From assembly GCF_011045215.1 (NCBI RefSeq), contig NZ_CP049201.1: a DNA stretch of 64,000 bases. The stretch is one strand, 5' to 3'. Of the stretch, positions 30,207 to 39,919 are shown in pieces. The notes beneath the pieces are model-generated. The model was given only the letters and a program-made list of their open reading frames with translations, searched no databases and was not told where the DNA came from. The position numbers and the translations under genes were made by a program. Source of the DNA: Escherichia coli. GTDB taxonomy: Bacteria > Pseudomonadota > Gammaproteobacteria > Enterobacterales > Enterobacteriaceae. Every line of letters begins with the position of its first letter. The stretch's first letter is position 1.

Positions 30207-31451
30207 ATGAGAAAAGCAGAAGTGAATGACTCTTTCATCACAAAAATCCTGACAGGTAATAACGTTCTGCGTGCTGCAATTGCCCGCATTGAGTGGGTTT
30301 TTGAAACATTTCCGTCGGTATGTCTGTCTTTTTCAGGTGGAAAGGATTCCACCGTACTGTTCCATCTTGTGGCAAATGTGGCCCGCAGGAAAAAACGTCG
30401 ATTCTCTGTACTGTTCATTGACTGGGAAGCCCAGTACCAGTGTACCGTTGAACATATTCAGAAGATGCGGAATATGTACGGGGATGTGACGGAGACCTTT
30501 TACTGGGTGGCACTTCCCCTGACCACGGTAAACGGTGTCTCACAGTTTCAGCCGGAGTGGATATGCTGGGAACCTGGTGTGACCTGGGTCCGTCAGCCAC
30601 CGGAAGAGGCCATTACGGATATGGCGTATTTTCCCTTCTACCGGTATGCCATGACCTTTGAAGAATTTGTTCCGGCATTTTCTTCCTGGTTTGCCGGTAA
30701 CCGGTGCGGTGTGGCGATACTGACTGGTGTCCGTGCGGATGAATCCCTCAACCGCTTTATGGGACTGGTGTCTCAGCGTAAGCTCAGATATGCCGATGAT
30801 AAACCCTGGACCACGGCATCACCTCAAGGGTTTTACTACACCATGTATCCATTGTATGACTGGAAAGCCCGTGATATCTGGATATATAACGCCAGAACCC
30901 GTGCCATCTACAATCCCCTGTATGACCTGATGTACCGTGCCGGTGTGCCGTTACGTAACATGCGTGTCTGTGAGCCTTTTGGCCCGGAACAACGTAAGGG
31001 GCTGTGGCTTTACCATGTTCTGGAGCCGGAAACCTGGGCCAGGATGTGTGAGCGGGTGTCAGGGGCTGCCAGTGGGGCGCGTTATGCCAATGAAAGCGGT
31101 GCCTATTTTGCCCTGCGTAAACGTATATCAAAACCGGCTCATCATACCTGGCGCAGCTATGCGATGTTCCTGCTGGATGTGATGCCGGAAAGAACGGCAG
31201 AACATTACCGTAACAAAATTGCTGTCTACCTGCGCTGGTATCAAACGCGGGGCTTCCCGGACGATATCCCGGATGAACAGGAAAATGACCTGGGCTGCCG
31301 GGATATTCCGTCCTGGCGACGTATCTGTAAGACACTCATAAAGAATGATTTCTGGTGCCGGACCCTCTCCTTCAGCCCGAACAAACCCCGGCACTATGAA
31401 CGTTACCTGCAGCGTATGAAAGAAAGGAGGAAGGAATGGGGGATTCTGTGA
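30207..31451 (+). CDS. ibrA: PAPS-reductase-like (PP-loop ATPase) protein, IbrA-like
   Basis: ORF 30201..31451; PP-loop motif SFSGGKDS near N-terminus; paired with a ParB-like gene downstream. Confidence 0.8.
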   Translation: MRKAEVNDSFITKILTGNNVLRAAIARIEWVFETFPSVCLSFSGGKDSTVLFHLVANVARRKKRRFSVLFIDWEAQYQCTVEHIQKMRNMYGDVTETFYWVALPLTTVNGVSQFQPEWICWEPGVTWVRQPPEEAITDMAYFPFYRYAMTFEEFVPAFSSWFAGNRCGVAILTGVRADESLNRFMGLVSQRKLRYADDKPWTTASPQGFYYTMYPLYDWKARDIWIYNARTRAIYNPLYDLMYRAGVPLRNMRVCEPFGPEQRKGLWLYHVLEPETWARMCERVSGAASGARYANESGAYFALRKRISKPAHHTWRSYAMFLLDVMPERTAEHYRNKIAVYLRWYQTRGFPDDIPDEQENDLGCRDIPSWRRICKTLIKNDFWCRTLSFSPNKPRHYERYLQRMKERRKEWGIL

Positions 31452-32074
31452 CAGCGGAGATACTGGGTAACATGATTCGTCAGTACTTCAGCCAGGAGCG
31501 AGCAGAAGAAGAGACCATACAGGCTCTGAATCATCTGCGCAGGGTGCTGCATGAGGTCAGTCCTTTTGCACAGGAGCCTGTGGACTGTGTGCTGTGGGTG
31601 AAAGCGGATGAGGTGGTGGCCAATGATTATAACCCCAATGTCATGGCACCGGGTGAGAAAAAACTGCTGAAACATTCACTGGAGCAGGATGGGTTCACGC
31701 AGCCTGTGGTTGTCTCGGAAGAGAAGGAGCATTATCTGGTCGTGGATGGTTTTCATCGTCAATTACTGGGCAGGGAAGCAGGTACGGGAAAACGTCTGAA
31801 GGGCTGGTTGCCAGTGACCTGTATTAATCCGGACAGAAGGGGGCAGGCCTCACGTATTGCTGCGACCATTCGACATAACCGGGCCAGGGGGAAACACCAG
31901 ATAACCTCAATGTCTGATATTGTCAGAGACCTGTCACGTCTGGGCTGGACGGATGAACGCATTGGTACAGAGCTGGGGATGGACCAGGATGAAGTGCTGA
32001 GACTGAAACAGATTAGCGGGCTGACGGAACTGTTTCAGGAAGAAAATTTCAGTCAATCCTGGACTGTTAATTAA
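31436..32074 (+). CDS. ibrB: ParB-like nuclease-domain protein, IbrB-like
   Basis: 212 aa; ParB/Srx-type motif ...HYLVVDGFHRQ... and ...IRHNRARG...; overlaps ibrA 3' end. Confidence 0.75.
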   Translation: MGDSVTAEILGNMIRQYFSQERAEEETIQALNHLRRVLHEVSPFAQEPVDCVLWVKADEVVANDYNPNVMAPGEKKLLKHSLEQDGFTQPVVVSEEKEHYLVVDGFHRQLLGREAGTGKRLKGWLPVTCINPDRRGQASRIAATIRHNRARGKHQITSMSDIVRDLSRLGWTDERIGTELGMDQDEVLRLKQISGLTELFQEENFSQSWTVN

Positions 32075-32244
32075 TCGTAATGTTCCGGGGACCTCATCTT
32101 TCACAGAAATATTCTGTTCATTAGCATTCCGGTATTCGTATAACTTCTTTCTGTGGAGAGTAAACAATGCCCAGGATGCGATGGACGCTTGATCAGAAAA
32201 AACATCACGTTGCCGCATGGCGCGCAAGCGGCCTTACCCGTGAA
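32074..32244 (+). repeat. ~170-bp direct repeat, copy 1 (IS-end-like sequence plus first 26 codons of an HTH transposase)
   Basis: Near-identical to 34339..34508 (one 1-nt indel); both contain ATGCCCAGGATGCGATGGACGCTTGATCAG... Confidence 0.8.
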
Positions 32245-32342
32245 CAGTACTGTGAACTTTACGACATTCCGTTTAAATCCCTGCGCCAGTGGCCGCAGGA
32301 TGTCGCAAAAGCCGAAAAACGGCTCTTCCGCAACCTGGGTTG
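32167..32342 (+). pseudogene. Truncated HTH transposase OrfA (IS66/IS3-like), 58 codons
   Basis: MPRMRWTLDQKKHHVAAWRASGLTREQYCELYDIPFKSLRQW...; too short for an intact orfA; not in ORF track (below size cut-off). Confidence 0.5.
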
Positions 32343-32439
32343 AGATTTTCATGCCAGTGGACTCATGACCCTCTGCCTGAGTAGTTCAAATCCGGCTCGA
32401 CTGCAAAATGGCATCTGAATCGATCGCAGTTTGGCATTC

Positions 32440-33929
32440 CATATCCTTACCCATAAATCCGAGTGATGTTATTCTGTTGATAAATTAACCATAATTTAGA
32501 GGAACTATGGAAAACTGGGTTATTAAGGAGCTGGAATCTCTGAATGTTGGTGATATCAGGCTCGAAAAGCGAATAAAGCACGTTCTCAGTGTGCTTAGCC
32601 GTTCACCAAAGGAAAGTATTCCCGTATCCTGCCGTACCTGGAGTGAGACAAAAGCTGCTTATCGTTGCTTTTCCAGTGATAAAATTTCAGCCGATAAAAT
32701 CATGGCTCCCCATAAGAAAAATATCATCGAAAGGACTAAACAGTTTAAACGGGCTCTGGTTTTACAGGATACGACTGAACTAAATTATTCTGGTCAAAAA
32801 AAGAAACAGGGCGTCGGTCCCAGACGACATGAAAATGAGCGAGATTTGTTTATTCACCCTCAATTGGTTATAAGTGATTCAGGTATTTGCTTAGGGGTTT
32901 ATGATGATTATCAATGGTTCAGAAAAGAACTCAAAACTCAGAAACAAAGTCGTAAAGAAATAACTAATGATTCACTTCACAGGAAACATATCAGTGAGAA
33001 AGAAACAGGACGGTGGATAGAAGGATATAAAAAAGCAACAGAACTGGCTAGGTCCTGTCCTGATACCCAGATAATTTCTGTTTCAGACCGTGAAGGTGAT
33101 ATTTACGACCTCTTTGAGAGTGCAGAAAATGAAAGTGGGATAAAGGCTGACTGGCTCGTAAGAATGAAGAGCATTAACCGGGCTATACTGAATTCATCAG
33201 GAAAAAGAGACTCATTACTCCTGAATGAAAAAATGATGCAGATTTTGCCACAGCAGATAATTGAGTTTACCCTTCCGGAAGGACGAGGACAACCTTCCCG
33301 CAAAGTCCAGCAGGAGCTACGCTTAGCAAGGTTGACGCTACATCCACCCACCGGTCGAAGAGGAAAGTTACGTTGTTCTCCGGTAACGGTAACTGTATTA
33401 CTTGCAAAGGAAATAAATGCTCCAGAAAGTGTCCAGCCATTAGTATGGTGGCTAATGAGTAGTGTACCTCCAGAAAAGCTGACGGAACCCGCACAGCTTA
33501 TTCAATGGTATTTATTACGCTGGCAGATTGAAGTTTTCTTTAAGGTATTAAAAAGCGGATGTCAGGTTGAGAAATTACAACTTGAGACATTTGAACGCAC
33601 AAGGAACTGTCTGGCCTTATACCTTATAATCTCATGGAGAATACTTTATCTTAGCTCATTGTATAAAATGGTTCCGGAGGAACCCTGTGATTTAATTTTC
33701 GAAAAGAAAGAATATGAGTATCTCTGGATATTGGTAGAGAATACGCCTCCACCTGAAAACATACCGAATATAAGAACGGCGGTTTTAATGCTTGCAAGAT
33801 TAGGAGGATATCTGGCAAGAAAAAATGATTCGCCTCCAGGCCCTAAGACTATATGGTCAGGATTAACACAATTAATGCTGTCAATTAATGCCATAGAAAT
33901 AGCCCAGAAAACTTGTGGGTAAGGGTATG
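32440..33929 (+). mobile_element. Intact IS4-family (IS50/Tn5-like) insertion sequence with 9-bp target duplication TTGGCATTC
   Basis: Imperfect terminal inverted repeats CATATCCTTACCCATAAAT (32440) vs CATACCCTTACCCACAAGT (rc of 33911-33929); identical 9-mers at 32431-32439 and 33930-33938. Confidence 0.8.
32507..33922 (+). CDS. IS4-family DDE transposase
   Basis: 471 aa; signature YLLRWQIEVFFKVLK (Y-x2-R-x3-E-x6-K) typical of IS4/IS50 transposases. Confidence 0.9.
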   Translation: MENWVIKELESLNVGDIRLEKRIKHVLSVLSRSPKESIPVSCRTWSETKAAYRCFSSDKISADKIMAPHKKNIIERTKQFKRALVLQDTTELNYSGQKKKQGVGPRRHENERDLFIHPQLVISDSGICLGVYDDYQWFRKELKTQKQSRKEITNDSLHRKHISEKETGRWIEGYKKATELARSCPDTQIISVSDREGDIYDLFESAENESGIKADWLVRMKSINRAILNSSGKRDSLLLNEKMMQILPQQIIEFTLPEGRGQPSRKVQQELRLARLTLHPPTGRRGKLRCSPVTVTVLLAKEINAPESVQPLVWWLMSSVPPEKLTEPAQLIQWYLLRWQIEVFFKVLKSGCQVEKLQLETFERTRNCLALYLIISWRILYLSSLYKMVPEEPCDLIFEKKEYEYLWILVENTPPPENIPNIRTAVLMLARLGGYLARKNDSPPGPKTIWSGLTQLMLSINAIEIAQKTCG

Positions 33930-34032
33930 TTGGCATTCGAATCGATCATGATTTGGCATCCATCTCCGATCACAGTTTGGCATCACAATCGATCACGATT
34001 TGGCACGCTTCCGATCATTGATTGGCATCCTG
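33930..34032 (+). repeat. Tandem array of ~23-bp GATC-containing repeats (consensus ...TTTGGCAT...CGATC); a further unit lies at 32405-32439 on the other side of the IS4 element
   Basis: Successive units ...tttggcatccatctccgatc / acagtttggcatcacaatcgatc / acgatttggcacgcttccgatc...; array is split by the IS4 insertion. Confidence 0.6.
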
Positions 34033-34345
34033 CCAGTCACTCCGGGAATTAACTCTTTTCGCCACAGTCTTCATTGCCGTGTTTAAACCAATGGAGACGG
34101 CAATGTCCAGAAAGAGAAAATCCAGGAGCACTATGGAAACCTGTTTTAAGATCCTTCAGCTCAAGTTCGACCAGAAGCTGACTAACCGTTGTATCGGGCT
34201 GACATTACACATCAGCGCCTCAACCGTTTTTGAGGTTCTTGCACGCTTCAAAGCCTCTTCTCTGTCATGGCCATTACCTGCTGATATATCCCATGACACG
34301 CTGGAGAAACTCATTTTTCCGCCCAAAGACACCTTTGCATCGTAA
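34022..34345 (+). pseudogene. N-terminal fragment of an HTH transposase (possibly IS21-family IstA-like)
   Basis: ...MSRKRKSRSTMETCFKILQLKFDQKLTNRCIGLTLHISASTVFEVL... HTH-like; truncated where the ~170-bp repeat copy 2 begins. Confidence 0.35.
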
Positions 34346-34508
34346 TGTTCCGGGGACCTCATCTTCACAGAAATATTCTGTTCATTAGCATTCCGGTATT
34401 CGTATAACTTCTTTCTGTGGAGAGTAAACAATGCCCAGGATGCGATGGACGCTTGATCAGAAAAAACATCACGTTGCCGCATGGCGCGCAAGCGGCCTTA
34501 CCCGTGAA
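34339..34508 (+). repeat. ~170-bp direct repeat, copy 2
   Basis: See copy 1 at 32074..32244; here the transposase reading frame diverges after codon 26 and is followed by an IS110-family element. Confidence 0.8.
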
Positions 34509-34657
34509 AATGTAATGAACGCATCCCACACAATTAAACACGGAGCAGTATGATGGTTAAAAGGGTGAAACTGGCAGGTGTGGAGCCTCGCAGATTTCCG
34601 GCATCATAGTGCCCAATACGGGATGCATAAAGCTCCCTCAGACTGGAGACTCCACAA

Positions 34658-35677
34658 ATGAAATATACACCGGTTGGCGTTGATATCGCAAAACATGTCA
34701 TTCAGATTCACTTCATCAATGAGCACACAGGTGAAGTGGTTGATAAACAGTTGCGTAGACAGGATTTTCTGACGTTCTTCGGCAACCGTGAGCCATGCCT
34801 GATTGGTATGGAGGCCTGTGGAGGTTCTCAGCACTGGGCACGGGAACTGACAAAACTTGGTCATAAAGTCCGGTTGTTGCAGGCCCGCTTCGTTAAGGCA
34901 TTCGTCATGGGCAATAAGAATGATGTGATGGATGCCCGGGCTATCTGGATGGCGGTTCAGCAGCCGGGTAAAGAAATCGCCGTAAAAACAGAAGAACAGC
35001 AGTCGGTACTGGTTCTGCACCGTACCCGCATGCAACTGGTGAAGTTCCGGACCGCACAAATTAATGCCCTGCACGGGACGTTACTGGAGTTTGGTGAAAC
35101 CATCCACAAAGGCCGGGCAGCGATGGAACGGGAGTTCCCTGAAGCACTGGAGCGGATGAAAGAGAGACTGCCACTGTATCTCATTACAGTGCTGGAAAAT
35201 CAGTACAACAGGCTGAATGAACTGGACTCACTGATAGATGATATAGAAAAACAGCTTACCAGTGTGGCGAGACAGAATGAAACCTGTAGACGGTTGCTGG
35301 ATATTCCTGGCGTTGGTCCACTTATTGCAACGGCAGCGTTGGCCATCATGGGGAAAGCATCAGTGTTTAAATCAGGGCGAGAGTTCGCGGCTTATGTTGG
35401 TCTGGTGCCCAGACAGACAGGCTCAGGAGGAAAAATCCGCCTGCTGGGAATAAGCAAACGTGGTGATAAATATCTGCGAACCCTGTTTATTCATGGTGCA
35501 AGGGCGGCAGCATTACTGACCAAAGAACCTGGGCCGTGGATAACCGAACTGAAAAAACGTCGTCCGGCCAGCGTGGCAATCGTCGCAATGGCAAACAAGC
35601 TGGCGCGAACGGTGTGGGCAATAGCCGCTCACGGACGTAAATACGACAAAAATCATGTCAGTATCAGGCCTTATTAA
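34658..35677 (+). CDS. IS110-family transposase
   Basis: 339 aa; N-terminal DEDD-type domain (MKYTPVGVDIAKHV...) and C-terminal ...IPGVGPLIATAALAIMG...FAAYVGLVPRQ... helix-hairpin-helix region typical of IS110 family. Confidence 0.9.
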   Translation: MKYTPVGVDIAKHVIQIHFINEHTGEVVDKQLRRQDFLTFFGNREPCLIGMEACGGSQHWARELTKLGHKVRLLQARFVKAFVMGNKNDVMDARAIWMAVQQPGKEIAVKTEEQQSVLVLHRTRMQLVKFRTAQINALHGTLLEFGETIHKGRAAMEREFPEALERMKERLPLYLITVLENQYNRLNELDSLIDDIEKQLTSVARQNETCRRLLDIPGVGPLIATAALAIMGKASVFKSGREFAAYVGLVPRQTGSGGKIRLLGISKRGDKYLRTLFIHGARAAALLTKEPGPWITELKKRRPASVAIVAMANKLARTVWAIAAHGRKYDKNHVSIRPY

Positions 35678-35862
35678 TCGCTGATACCGATAAACATAAA
35701 CTCTTTACAAAAGGGTGAATGCTGAAAGGTTGCGTGGGCAGCCGTAGTGATGACAACGACAGGTAAGACCGGGACTCGCTAAACCTGAATCTGCTCTGGA
35801 GATTAAAGCTCGCTGGGAGAATAAGGCGCGAGTCAGCGTATTACATAGGGGCCCGCAGCTTC

Positions 35863-37365
35863 ATGGCTGCAACAAGGCCGGATATAGAGCTGCAACCTAC
35901 CGTCAATGTCAAAACTACGAAAGCCTTGCAAACGGGATGCGTTCATATAGAGCAGATGAAGCTCGCACGCCAGCAGCGTTTTGGTAAAAAATGCGAATCG
36001 CTGGCCGGGATGCAGCGTTCCCTGTTCGAAGAGGATGTTGACGCGGATATCGCAGAAATCTCGGCGCGTCTGGACAAACTGCTTCCTCAGACCGGGGACG
36101 AAGAAAAAACAACACGTCCTGTTCGTAAGCCCTTGCCTTCACATCTTCCCCGTGCTGAAAAGGTTATCCCGCCAGCTGAGGAACGTTGTCCTGACTGTGA
36201 TGCCCCCCTGCACTTCATTCGCGATGAAGTCAGCGAGAAGCTGGAATATATCCCCGCACAGGTTGTGGTCCACCGCTATATCCGCCCGCAGTACAGCTGT
36301 CCCTGCTGTGAGAAAGTGTTCAGCGGAAAAATGCCGGCACATATCCTTCCGAAAAGTGCTGTTGAGCCATCGGTCATCGCACAGGTTGTCATCAGCAAAT
36401 ATACCGACCATCTGCCCCTGTATCGCCAGCAGCACATTTTCTCCCGAATGGGTGTGGAGCTCCCCGTCAGTACAATGGCGGATATGGTCGGTGTTGCTGG
36501 CGCTGCACTGGCCCCGCTGGCAAAATTGTTACGCCACGAGCTTCTGACACGGGATGTTATTCATGCAGATGAAACGTCCCTGAGGCTCCTTGATACCCGG
36601 AAAGGCGGTAAATCCTGCTCCGGCTGGCTGTGGGCTTACGTCAGCGGAGAAAGAAGCGGTCCGCCGGTCGTCTGTTTTGACTCGCAGACCGGACGGGCCC
36701 TCAGATATCCTGAGGCCTGGCTGCAGGGCTGGCGTGGTGGCACGCTGGTGAGTGACGGATACAGCGTGTACAAATCTCTGGCGGATAATGACCCCGGTAT
36801 TACATCTGCCTGTTGCTGGAGCCACGCAAGACGCGGCTTCGCCAGTCTGTATAAGGCCAGCAGGGAGCCCCGTGCAGCCATGGCGCTGAGAAAAATCGCG
36901 GGTCTTTATCGCATTGAGAAGTTCATCCGTGAACGTCCTGTGGAAAAAATACGGCAATGGCGACAACGGTATTCCCGGCCGATAGTGAATGACCTGTTTG
37001 CCTGGCTTGAAGAGCAGGAGCCGTGCTGTCCGCCCGACGGACCACTAAACAAAGCGATTAATTATATCCTGAACCGGCGCGATGAACTGAGCTGCTTCCT
37101 GGGTGACGGAGCCGTGCCCCTGGACAACAATATCTGCGAGCGTGCTATCCGCCCGGTCGTTATGGGACGAAAGGCCTGGTTGTTCGCCGGTTCACTGATG
37201 GCCGGAAACCGCGCGGCACAGATAATGAGCCTTCTGGAAACGGCAAAACGTAATGGTCTGGAGCCACATGCCTGGCTGACAGACGTCCTGGCGCGTCTGC
37301 CGGAATGGCCAGAGGAGCGACTGGCAGAGTTGCTGCCCCTTGAGGGATTTACCTTCTCCGGGTGA
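35863..37365 (+). CDS. tnpC: IS66-family transposase TnpC, second distinct copy, N-terminally truncated
   Basis: 500 aa; aligns with TnpC at 8242..9780 from the ...FGKKCES... region onward (CPDCDA...CPCC zinc-finger-like, DDE core); lacks the N-terminal coiled-coil; no cognate tnpA/tnpB adjacent. Confidence 0.85.
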   Translation: MAATRPDIELQPTVNVKTTKALQTGCVHIEQMKLARQQRFGKKCESLAGMQRSLFEEDVDADIAEISARLDKLLPQTGDEEKTTRPVRKPLPSHLPRAEKVIPPAEERCPDCDAPLHFIRDEVSEKLEYIPAQVVVHRYIRPQYSCPCCEKVFSGKMPAHILPKSAVEPSVIAQVVISKYTDHLPLYRQQHIFSRMGVELPVSTMADMVGVAGAALAPLAKLLRHELLTRDVIHADETSLRLLDTRKGGKSCSGWLWAYVSGERSGPPVVCFDSQTGRALRYPEAWLQGWRGGTLVSDGYSVYKSLADNDPGITSACCWSHARRGFASLYKASREPRAAMALRKIAGLYRIEKFIRERPVEKIRQWRQRYSRPIVNDLFAWLEEQEPCCPPDGPLNKAINYILNRRDELSCFLGDGAVPLDNNICERAIRPVVMGRKAWLFAGSLMAGNRAAQIMSLLETAKRNGLEPHAWLTDVLARLPEWPEERLAELLPLEGFTFSG

Positions 37366-38078
37366 GTGATACCTGTCGTCAGGTGTTCTTGCAGCGTGCC
37401 ATAATCTGCAGTCGGGAGTTGAACGCCTGACGACAGGAAATGAGCCAGGCCAGCCACCACGCGGGCTGACAGCGAATCAGAACCTGAGTCAGCCCGGAGC
37501 CATTCCCGGGGCTGCACTTCATCACCTGCCACCAGTACCCGTGTCAGTACTTCGCGACCTGACGCAATTATCCGACTCAGTCCTTCAGAACCCGCCTCCG
37601 ATACCAGCCTGGCGCTCGCCCCTGCGCAAGCAAAATAAATCAACCATTGTCAGACTGCGATCATTCGTATGCACCGCCGATGACGCGCCCGAAAACGCGT
37701 CAATATGAGTTCGCCGGAATATTACTTTCGATTCCCTTTATGCATAAGTCGAAATAATAATATTTTGTTGAAAAATCGAAGGTTATTTCAGGAGAGAGAA
37801 CAGGGTATTCAGGGAGTTAAGTTGTTGGATATGGGAATTCGGGAGCGTGGTCTTACTGAGTGGTCAATACTTTCGTAATCACGAAAATCACCGTCCTGGT
37901 CGCAACCAGCGTAATTCCGGAGCGGAGAATTACCACCTGGAGAAATAACACTATCGCAATAATGTTATTTCAGTGCCTTCAGACCTGTCGTGGCATTTTC
38001 CATGGTTGGATTAGGCAGGGGTACCAGCATAAATCACACTAAAAATATTAAAATGATAATTCACGTTGAAACTATATA

Positions 38079-38103
38079 CAGCCTCTGTAGTTAACAGAGG
38101 CTG
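38079..38103 (-). terminator. Hairpin downstream of the yfdX-like gene (putative terminator)
   Basis: CAGCCTCTG-TAGTTAA-CAGAGGCTG, 9-bp stem, ~40 nt after the stop on the minus strand; weak T-tract. Confidence 0.45.
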
Positions 38104-38140
38104 GTCGATATTGTATAATATGACGATTTCTGGTTAGTTA

Positions 38141-38752
38141 TCAGTGAAGGCTGACCGTATCCATAATCGTGCCATCTTCAGCGCCTTTCAGAGCGAGATT
38201 GGCTTCGTAATATTTACCTTCAGCCATTAAGCTCTGTGCACTCTTCACTTTCTGCTGAGTCTGTTTTAAAGGCATAAGCCACTGTGTTTCAGATATATTA
38301 ATTCCTGCCAGCTGCAGTTTTTCAATTGCACCTTTTTTGTCACCTTTATCCAGTTTTTTATTTGCTTCATCGATGGCTTTCTGCTTTTCTGGTGTGGCTG
38401 TAAAATCTTCTGCCAGCGTCAGTTGACTGTTAATAATGACATAAACATCGCCTTCCTGAGGGGTTTTTTTGTCTTTTCTGACCAGCTGCGCCCATGTTGT
38501 GTCTTCTGATGTTAACAATTTGTTTGCGTCATTTATCAGTTTTACAGCACCCTCCGTATCACCGCTAAAAAGAGTCAGGCGAGCATACTGAATATCTCTC
38601 ATAATATTTATGCCCCGTTGTTCCATCTTCATTTTTTCTGATGTAACAACAGGGTGATGAGCCGCTGATGTATCCTGAGTTTTTGTATCAGCAACGGCAA
38701 CGGAAGCAGCAAGAGAAGCTGCAAGGGCAATAGTGGTTAATATACGTTTCAT
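38141..38752 (-). CDS. YfdX-family periplasmic protein (putative)
   Basis: 203 aa; signal peptide (MKRILTTIALAASLAASVAVA), Lys/Ala-rich helical repeats, ...GKYYEANLALKGAEDG... motif recalled from YfdX family. Confidence 0.5.
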   Translation of the reverse strand: MKRILTTIALAASLAASVAVADTKTQDTSAAHHPVVTSEKMKMEQRGINIMRDIQYARLTLFSGDTEGAVKLINDANKLLTSEDTTWAQLVRKDKKTPQEGDVYVIINSQLTLAEDFTATPEKQKAIDEANKKLDKGDKKGAIEKLQLAGINISETQWLMPLKQTQQKVKSAQSLMAEGKYYEANLALKGAEDGTIMDTVSLH

Positions 38753-39280: not shown

Positions 39281-39919
39281 GTGGCATCATATCGTAACAA
39301 TGGTTTTTTTGGCCTGGTTGACGGCCTGAACTTTGCAGTACAGTACCAGGGTAAAAATGAACGTAATGATTTAGATCATTATACCAAAGGAAACGATGAT
39401 GGTTTCGGTTTCTCCACTACCTATGAATACGAGGGGGTCAGCGTTGGTGCAACTTATGCGAAATCTGATCGTACAGACATGCAGGTTCGGACAGGGAAAA
39501 CGCTCCCGGAGTTGACCGCTTCCGGTAAAAATGCAGAAGTCCGGGCGGCCGGTCTGAAATATGATGCCAATAACGTTTATCTGGCAACAACCTATTCTGA
39601 AACACAGAATATGACAGCTTTTGCTGGTGACTTTATTGCAAATAAAGCACAAAACTTTGAAGCAGTTACACAGTATCAGTTTGATTTCGGTCTGCGTCCG
39701 TCCATCGCTTATCTGCAGTCTAAAGGTAAGGATCCTGGTATGTGGGGTAACCAGGATTTGGTGAAATATGTTGATGTTGGTGCGACTTACTACTTCAATA
39801 AAAGCATATCCGCGTTTGTTGATTATAAAATCAACCTGCTTGACAAAAACAATTTCACGGATGTTCTGGGTATTAACACAGATGATATAATTGCCACTGG
39901 TCTGGTATATCAGTTCTGA
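39281..39919 (+). pseudogene. C-terminal ~210 codons of an OmpC/NmpC-type general porin (N-terminus missing)
   Basis: ...[22 protein letters not shown]...[29 protein letters not shown]...[13 protein letters not shown]...ATGLVYQF; in-frame stop at 39236-39238 and no N-terminal half upstream. Confidence 0.8.

Follow-up and report, generated by a model that had tools for sequence, protein, structure and literature searches.

What has left two near-identical stretches of DNA, each about 170 nt long, on either side of a group of insertion sequences (IS) in an Escherichia coli genome, and is this pair a place where the genome recombines? The two stretches lie in a cluster of IS remnants (positions 32077-37725) on a 64,000-nt piece of contig NZ_CP049201.1 (assembly GCF_011045215.1); we refer to the whole of this piece, which contains no Ns, as the window. 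The original prediction, made from the letters of the window, had described a nested, rearranged cluster with an intact IS4, an istA fragment, an IS110-family transposase and a truncated TnpC, and had proposed the repeat pair as a likely recombination hotspot. Domain and sequence matches bear out this inventory (TnpC starts at codon 56), and the cluster extends beyond the end then given (37437) to the right terminus of an IS66-family element, with all its junctions falling exactly at IS termini. The repeat is the left end (terminal repeat and first 26 tnpA codons) of this 2,771-bp element, which is present twice. The recombination that can be documented at the locus took place between two IS110-family elements inserted in the second IS66 copy and not between the IS66 repeats.

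The repeat as the left end of IS66

The repeat finder and the alignment confirmed the two copies, 32074-32244 (171 nt) and 34339-34508 (170 nt), and the sole difference between them is one T in a T-run (CATCTTTCAC vs. CATCTTCAC). Exact blocks were returned at 32074-32100/34339-34365 and 32100-32244/34364-34508, with offsets one base apart, and in the alignment the similarity breaks off sharply at either side. A match of about 170 nt cannot have arisen by chance. In both copies there is the left terminal repeat of the IS66 family (GTAATGTTCCGGGGACC, from 32077 and 34342 on), followed by exactly 26 codons of tnpA (ATG at 32167 and 34431), so that the IS-end-like sequence and the 26 codons noted before are real. 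The reading frame had been taken for a helix-turn-helix transposase; its product is the IS66 accessory protein TnpA (NCBIfam NF047593, 32.4 bits vs. a cutoff of 28). The IS66 sequence truly common to both copies spans positions 1 to ~164-166, since the first three bases of the repeat (ATC) are flanking bases matching by coincidence and the last two (AA) are a chance overlap between IS66 and the left end of ISEc11, an element treated below. The presence of ATC in both left flanks was considered as a target preference and rejected, as the related copy in strain 52F4 (L003) lacks ATC at its real terminus.

As reference we have used the 2,771-bp IS66 copy of plasmid B of strain C5 (L001, 1501-4271; tnpA-tnpB-tnpC), which spans GTAATGTTCCGG…CCGGAATATTAC and is flanked by an 8-bp duplication (GGAAGAAG). 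Intact elements of this family, of ~2.75 kb, have many copies among 5,426 complete E. coli genomes and match both ends of the region, and none of these genomes holds more than 65% of the region itself. The window has the terminal inverted repeats typical of IS66 (~15-30 bp, starting GTAA…), GTAATGTTCCGGGGACC at the left and, as reverse complement, GTAATATTCCGGCGAAC at the right, ending at 37725; both are also present in L001. The right part of the second copy is 98.9% identical to L001, and its TnpC matches NF033517 (439 bits) and four Pfam IS66 domains (LZ, zf, DDE and C-terminal). The gene tnpB is deleted in the window and present in the intact homologues L001, L015 and L016. We sought an 8-bp target duplication pairing either left flank with the right flank in the window and found none (left AATTAATC and TTTGCATC, right TTTCGATT; no pair alike), which shows later rearrangement and does not count against membership of the IS66 family.

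Repeat copy 1 is part of a first IS66 remnant, IS66-a. Copy 2 and the IS110-family element and shortened tnpC that follow it are not separate debris; together they make up a single IS66 copy, IS66-b, with an internal deletion.

A hybrid IS110-family element within IS66-b

In strain 52F4 a related IS110-family element, hereafter the sibling, is a simple insertion at IS66 position 995. The right junction of the window element, and that of the element in strain mip270_22 (L002), is identical to it (…CATATAG/AGCAGATG, with the slash marking junctions here and below), and in both the left junction lies at IS66 position ~166. The surveyed left end of the window element is 100% identical to L008, an annotated ISEc11. 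The usual home of annotated ISEc11 elements is IS66-family tnpB, with GTGAAAA/TGTAATG as the common form of their left junction. When ISEc11 (L008) and the sibling of L003 type are compared, 205 sites are informative; in the window the first 78 are of ISEc11 type and the remaining 127 of sibling type, with none mixed. The ISEc11-type sequence extends from the left end to at least 35056 and the sibling-type sequence begins at 35113 at the latest and continues to the right end, placing the crossover in the 57-bp interval between these positions. The encoded protein follows the same pattern, with all differences from ISEc11 at residue 173 or later and all those from the sibling at residue 125 or earlier. 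The window element is a single-crossover hybrid of ISEc11 (left) and a retargeted sibling (right).

It does not stand by itself. The L002 element is also a single-crossover hybrid, with its crossover ~350 bp further left, and L011 encodes a hybrid transposase identical to that of the window. The precursor that would be predicted is found in plasmid pRHB06-C19_2 (L010), which reads IS66 1-166, ISEc11 (99.9%), IS66 165-995, sibling (100%) and IS66 from 995 onward, and the undeleted sibling insertion at position 995 occurs in L003 and L015. We consider it very probable, as part of the overall explanation given below, that recombination between both elements within one IS66 deleted positions 167-994 (829 bp) of IS66-b; repeat copy 2 would have its right edge where it does because this event removed the sequence beyond.

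The identical right junctions in the window, L002 and L003 would equally be expected if a single IS110-family element had inserted at position 995 and an illegitimate deletion had later removed 167-994, no second element being involved, and deletions adjacent to IS are common. Such an origin does not account for the left 546 bp, which are ISEc11-type at all 78 informative sites and include a 49-bp segment absent from the sibling, nor for a left junction, GTGAAAA/TGTAATG, with the form of bona fide ISEc11 junctions. It is also at odds with the existence of a precursor containing both elements and with the different position of the L002 crossover. The mosaic pattern and the precursor effectively refute this alternative, to which we attach hardly any probability.

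Regarding its classification, the hybrid transposase has the domains of the DEDD transposases (PF01548 and PF02371) and matches the NCBIfam family 'IS110 family RNA-guided transposase' with 331 bits (cutoff 140). Elements of the IS1111 group have 11-13-bp subterminal inverted repeats with short asymmetric extensions, and more non-coding DNA downstream of tnp than upstream (Siddiquee et al., 2024; PMC11187229). The hybrid is built in this way, with a 13-bp subterminal repeat (ATGAACGCATCCC) near both ends (34515-34527 and 35934-35946) and non-coding DNA of ~150 bp upstream and 273 bp downstream of the transposase gene. The parental elements in L008, L010 and L003 are simple site-specific insertions that made no duplication and have on either side the target recognised by their seekRNA; the hybrid in the window has a left flank corresponding to the ISEc11-type site and a right flank corresponding to the sibling-type site and is therefore not a simple insertion.

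An open reading frame (ORF) of 500 aa (35863-37365, 'TnpC') begins in the IS110-family element, 29 codons inside its right end, and enters tnpC in frame at codon 56. In L002 and L003, PGAP calls the corresponding ORF of 501 aa an intact IS66 transposase.

Target sites and predicted seekRNA

ISEc11 has been described as a 1,443-bp IS1111-group element with the target GTGAAAATACTG and a seekRNA encoded in the 3' non-coding region (Siddiquee et al., 2024; PMC11187229). The site that it occupies in IS66 tnpA, CGTGAA/CAGTACTGTG within the target stretch CCCGTGAACAGTACTGTG, is a look-alike of the known target GTG/AAAATACTG and one base longer than the canonical one (GTGAA-CAG-TACTG). This junction is rare, appearing in 2 of the 5,426 complete genomes. 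If insertion conserves all bases, the number of A's is off by one between the junctions of L008 (3504-3512/4944-4952) and L010 (2668-2676/4110-4118), that is, between the canonical tnpB site and the tnpA site; the discrepancy could have come from slippage within the run of A's or from a cut made at a slightly shifted position. ISEc11 is also covered in Prosseda (2006).

The sibling occupies a different target stretch, CTGGAAGAAGCAGATGAAG, in tnpC. Its predicted guide segments are ATCTGCT (35789-35795) and CTGGGAGAA (35813-35821), with a predicted basal stem in which GACTCGC (35773-35779) pairs with GCGAGTC (35828-35834). At the aligned positions ISEc11 has ACAGTATTTT and GTGAAAATA, and the sibling guides match the sibling's own insertion site, CTGGAAGAA/GCAGAT, at IS66 position 995. 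Threaded on the ISEc11 fold, the sibling sequence gives -20.0 kcal/mol with three compensatory pairs, the fold being roughly kept. Thus, for both ISEc11 and the sibling, the 3' region appears to encode an RNA with two segments matching both target strands, and a scan of the cluster against Rfam gave no match. Judged from the sequence, the different guides are a case of natural seekRNA retargeting between close relatives (87.6% DNA identity).

Circle formation and transposition of ISEc11 are lost when the flanking target bases on either side are replaced (Siddiquee et al., 2024; PMC11187229). By analogy, the hybrid would now be immobile and unable to excise, because its ISEc11-type left flank no longer matches its sibling-type seekRNA.

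The 49-bp segment at the ISEc11 left end (34529-34577), in place of which the sibling has an unrelated 35 bp, contains GGTGAAA and CAGTAT, resembling the two halves of the ISEc11 target. A role for it as RNA guide was considered and rejected, since the published seekRNA lies in the 3' non-coding region, where the guide differences are also found. ISEc11 tolerates cargo after bp 50 (Siddiquee et al., 2024; PMC11187229).

One could speculate that ISEc11 and the sibling are specialised hyperparasites of IS66, with guides evolved against conserved tnpB, tnpC and, secondarily, tnpA. We regard this idea as improbable. If it were true, two such elements within one IS66 would recombine, delete the accessory genes and leave a chimera with a guide that has lost its match to the left flank, so that both parasites are locked in place; were this general, RNA-guided IS would repeatedly inactivate and immobilise members of another IS family in nature.

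Between the two IS66 copies

The coordinates of all features are collected in Table 1. The original list of components lacked the ISL3-family stub. Copy 1 continues as IS66 sequence up to position 243 and is followed by 80 bp matching annotated ISL3 transposase genes. The terminus of the ISL3 element was defined from L006, where it adjoins an IS3, showing that GGCTCTTCCGCAAC is the ISL3 terminal repeat (GGCTCTT… in this family). IS66-a is cut by a terminus-precise ISL3 insertion, as this repeat stands exactly after IS66 position 243. The reverse strand of the stub encodes the C-terminal end of the transposase, and the stub is 100% identical to a longer remnant in L012 that carries PF01610 (DDE_Tnp_ISL3) and 97.5% identical to a full ISL3 in L015. 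The truncated tnpA ORF of IS66-a (32167-32343) runs on into the ISL3 end. For the sequence after position 243, a snap-back hairpin and what might be left of an IS66 palindrome joined tail to tail were considered and rejected, as an intact ISL3 explains GGCTCTTCCGCAAC. In L015 the full-length ISL3 (3319-5083, 540-aa transposase) lies within the sibling IS110-family element, where bases 193-199 are duplicated, so that ISL3 has been recently active in this lineage.

Next to the stub is the left terminus of an IS21-family element (TGCAAAATGG…), complete in strain 52F4 with istA and istB (ISSso4 family) and apparent flanking direct repeats. The window retains only its left ~450 bp, 98.9% identical to the L003 element and with visible repeated TTGGCAT motifs. 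The 70-aa istA fragment by itself matches no IS21 profile in Pfam or NCBIfam. It stops exactly at the IS66-b terminus (34341/34342), and the junction-specific 70-aa ORF is present in four other assemblies.

The IS4 element inserted in this fragment is flanked by a perfect 9-bp duplication, TTGGCATTC (32431-32439 and 33930-33938), and has the ends CATATCCTTACCCA… and …TGGGTAAGGGTATG. Its transposase belongs to the IS50/Tn5-like branch (Pfam Tnp_DNA_bind, DDE_Tnp_1 and Dimer_Tnp_Tn5; NCBIfam transpos_IS4_3, NF033590, 347 bits), and the copies of the element in L003, L015 and L016, as well as a partial copy in L018, show 100% identity to it. Beside it, 47 bp of IS21 (33930-33976) are kept in the window and missing from L003, L015, L016 and L018, a loss that looks like a deletion between TTGGCAT repeats. 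In L003 (2511-4000) the 100%-identical IS4 occupies the same site in the opposite orientation.

Table 1. Features of the IS cluster and its outer flanks (window coordinates)
Feature	Coordinates	Strand	Basis or detail
ibrB (ParB-like), left outer flank	31436..32074	+	Pfam ParB_N weak match; IbrB-like annotation in C5 plasmid A
IS66-a, IS66 positions 1-243, holding repeat copy 1	32077..32321	+	BLAST to L001, NCBIfam
ISL3-family stub, 80 bp	32322..32401	-	Terminal repeat GGCTCTTCCGCAAC and last transposase codons (…RAGFELLRQRVMSPLA, stop)
IS21-family (ISSso4-like) left terminus, part 1 (TGCAAAATGGCATC…)	32402..32439	+	Homology to L003; final 9 bp are the IS4 target duplication
IS4-family element, intact, 1,490 bp	32440..33929	+	Transposase 32507-33922 (471 aa)
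IS21 left end, part 2, and first ~70 istA codons (ATG 34133)	33930..34341	+	98.9% to L003 4001-4366
IS66-b left end, positions 1 to ~164-166, holding repeat copy 2	34342..34506 (to 34508 including ambiguous A's; boundary ambiguous by 2 A's)	+	
Hybrid IS1111-group (IS110-family) element	34507..35950	+	Transposase 34658-35677
Predicted seekRNA core, sibling type	35766..35855	+	Alignment with ISEc11 3' non-coding region
IS66-b positions 995-2771: tnpC from codon 56 and right terminal repeat	35951..37725	+	Ends …CCGGAATATTAC at 37725
Right outer flank (TTTCGATT…) to yfdX	37726..38752 (yfdX 38141-38752, minus)		Pfam YfdX

Related assemblies and the seam of the island

Independent assemblies were found by exact look-up of junction-specific short ORFs. 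A single contig, L016, reads ibrB, IS66 1-243, the ISL3 stub, IS21 interrupted by IS4, the istA fragment and IS66 from 1-624 onward. Its copy 2 is intact, so the repeat there is 247 bp long at 98.8% identity, and the window IS66-b left end is 100% identical to it. In L015, one 29-kb contig contains copy 1 (partial, at the contig end), IS4, the IS21/IS66-b junction, IS66-b intact to position 995, the sibling element with its full ISL3, IS66 995-2771 and the yfdX flank through ProQ. The yfdX flank is 99.96% identical to that of the window and the flanking octamers are the same. Single junctions are shared by L018, L012 and L013, and the ibrB/IS66 junction, in which the ibrB stop codon lies 2 bp upstream of the IS66-a terminus, is identical in L005, L012, L013 and L016. 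The cluster is inherited in a lineage, with earlier stages of it present in independent drafts. An exact-pattern scan of the GTDB representative genomes for the IS21/IS66 junction gave no match, and the arrangement is likewise absent from the complete E. coli genomes, the PLSDB plasmids and the GTDB representatives.

The location of the cluster at a seam between the ibrAB side and the side of the type VI secretion system (T6SS) had been correctly recognised. The left 32 kb (1-32076; fimbriae, MFS transporter, ibrAB) are collinear with one record only, the 214-kb plasmid A of strain C5 (99.3%), and this collinearity includes the ibrB/IS66 junction. To the right lies a T6SS island, which is chromosomal in 4,826 of 4,837 places, and its flank is 98.7% identical to the C5 chromosome from exactly 37726. 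Homology to both C5 replicons breaks exactly at the IS66 termini. A synthetic 'empty site' query retrieved no genome with the two outer flanks adjacent; a match of the C5 chromosome that began 9 bp before the junction was dismissed as a chance extension, C5 reading AATTGCATA/TTTCGATT. Plasmid pRHB10-C19_2 was examined as an ancestral state with ibrB and an intact IS66 and rejected, as a perC-like gene lies between ibrB and the IS and the insertion site is another one.

A left side matching a plasmid and a right side matching a chromosome of one and the same strain, C5, together with the absence of the whole arrangement from any complete genome, is what one would see if the copies were an assembly artefact at a collapsed IS66 and the join were chimeric. 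This had been named in advance as the outcome that would overturn the prediction. The junctions are nevertheless shared by L016 and L015, contigs of different sequencing projects, and L016 holds both copies; the two copies are set apart by an indel and by their flanks, which are dissimilar and terminus-precise, and the DNA is without Ns. An artefact is thus extremely improbable.

The possibility that IS66-b is a local duplicate of IS66-a, generated in one duplicative event (intramolecular or one-ended IS66 transposition, or gene conversion), is also suggested by the sequences. Over positions 1-166 the copies are identical except for the indel, and at the same four bases both deviate from other E. 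coli copies such as L001 (97% identity); the left end of each is terminus-precise. Over positions 1-243, however, there are 3 mismatches in 247 bp between the copies of L016, and one mismatch and one gap between window copy 1 and L016 copy 2. Moreover, the same left-end variant is found at an unrelated locus in L002 and therefore is a circulating allele. We regard a local duplication as unlikely, and since a local hop would still amount to two insertions it would differ little from the explanation that we prefer.

Do the repeats then recombine with each other? Identical direct repeats of 166 bp at a distance of 2.26 kb exceed the minimal length for RecA-dependent recombination in E. coli, and local rearrangements are many: two hybrid crossovers, the 47-bp deletion, the inverted IS4 of L003 and the inverted IS66 of C5 plasmid A. 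One could argue from this for an active hotspot, at which the segment lying between the ibrAB and T6SS modules is deleted or reshuffled again and again. Yet every assembly that spans the region (the window, L016 and, with copy 1 at the contig end, L015) keeps both copies. The predicted deletion product, with ibrB/IS66 continuous past position 243, was found neither in the complete E. coli genomes nor in the PLSDB plasmids or the GTDB representatives, and the deletion would remove dead IS fragments only. Of the two roles originally given to the repeats, deletion (or duplication) holds in principle as a RecA-dependent and rare event; inversion does not, as direct repeats cannot invert and the window contains no inverted copy. 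No evidence supports a hotspot, which we consider unlikely. The two repeats could delete the 2.26 kb between them at a low frequency, probably without phenotypic consequence.

Other rearrangements were seen around the same elements. In C5 plasmid A (L005, 10501-13300) the ibrB-adjacent IS66-a is interrupted at ~148 by a second, inverted IS66, whose position 224 is connected with the same ISL3 stub through an imperfect 13/15-bp microhomology (CGGCTTTTGCAAC vs. CGGCTCTTCCGCAAC). An ENA metagenome contig (L017, 1-850; coverage ~0.85) combines the istA fragment, IS66 1-166 and ISEc11 with an IS21 end without IS4 and a different left flank (IS66-like tnpB). Either ISEc11 has inserted at 166 more than once, or recombination has exchanged the flanks, or the contig is chimeric. 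Beyond yfdX, the window has an N-terminally truncated porin gene (39281-39919; annotated as a partial porin in C5), a further sign of a degraded island edge.

Proposed history of the locus

We think it highly likely that the region is a lineage-specific IS graveyard, formed by successive nested insertions followed by the loss of distal parts. This history is built on the observed boundaries, the mosaic pattern, the precursor, the second independent hybrid and the junctions common to other assemblies. IS66-a would have inserted directly after ibrB. An ISL3 insertion would then have cut it at position 243, and an IS21 insertion would have cut the ISL3 80 bp in. IS66-b would have come to adjoin istA codon 70 of the same IS21, the order of these early insertions being the one that we infer. 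With IS66-b intact, the ancestral repeat would have been ~247 bp long, a state still found in other strains. In the window lineage, two related IS1111-group elements with seekRNAs would have entered IS66-b in the same orientation, the retargeted sibling into tnpC at position 995 and ISEc11 into tnpA at ~166. Homologous recombination between these ~87%-identical elements would have removed IS66 167-994 and one element's worth of DNA, leaving one hybrid. At the right end of IS66-b, an IS66-mediated or IS66-homology event probably joined the plasmid-type ibrAB module to the T6SS island, because no left flank forms an 8-bp duplication with the right flank.

Several points weigh against this reconstruction. 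Neither IS66 of the window has an 8-bp duplication, so the events that removed their distal halves are reconstructed and not seen directly. In A-rich sequence, the exact ends of the IS1111-group elements can be placed only to within 1-3 bases, and two ISEc11 junctions differ by one in their number of A's. The immobility suggested for the hybrid draws on one published experiment with ISEc11. Finally, the distribution of IS4 and of ISEc11 at 166 among the assemblies does not fit one simple tree (L017, a metagenome contig of very low coverage, has ISEc11 without IS4 and in another left context), and recurrent insertion or exchange between IS66 copies is therefore needed.

Significance and comparison with known systems

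Annotators should treat the region as two IS66 copies, of which one has an internal deletion, together with an ISL3 stub, a fragment of IS21 and an intact IS4, and should not take it for a functional locus. The cluster marks the join of a module that is plasmid-borne in C5 (ibrAB, fimbriae) to a T6SS island of chromosomal type, and helps to trace how the island was assembled. For IS biology, the locus provides a clean example of natural seekRNA retargeting between very close relatives, a secondary target site of ISEc11 and two different RNA-guided IS that have recombined into hybrids twice, with mapped crossovers. Such hybrids allow the published rule, by which excision requires a match of the guide to both flanks, to be tested on natural material. 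As a whole the cluster is ordinary IS debris. The hybrid RNA-guided IS, its retargeted sibling parent and the secondary target of ISEc11 add fresh examples of phenomena already known and will have a modest interest for those working on IS110 and IS1111 elements. Nothing here changes how any system is understood.

Compared with reference IS66-family elements of the tnpA-tnpB-tnpC type in E. coli, the repeat unit of the window has 97-99% nucleotide identity to the left end. The window copies differ in being incomplete, without flanking duplication and without tnpB; their tnpA ends at codon 51 (copy 1) or codon 26 (copy 2), and tnpC lacks its first 55 codons. With ISEc11 the window element shares the left ~550 bp, the subterminal repeats, the long 3' non-coding region, the absence of a duplication and a site like GTG/AAAATACTG, whereas the sibling has supplied its right ~830 bp, which comprise the right end and the entire seekRNA region and have other guides. 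The natural retargeting pair ISEc11/ISXne4 (Siddiquee et al., 2024; PMC11187229) is the closest parallel to the relation between ISEc11 and the sibling, which keeps the seekRNA stem and has both guides replaced. The sibling is much nearer to ISEc11, the two proteins differing at 26 of 339 amino acids (92% identity, compared with 72% for ISXne4), and, unlike in that pair, both elements target IS66 as host element, at different genes. Lastly, the deletion in IS66-b resembles the classic deletions by homologous recombination between direct IS copies, in which the intervening DNA and one element's worth of sequence are lost. Here the partners are ~12% diverged, and the product is consequently a recognisable chimera with a crossover that can be mapped to a 57-bp interval and with a second crossover in another strain.

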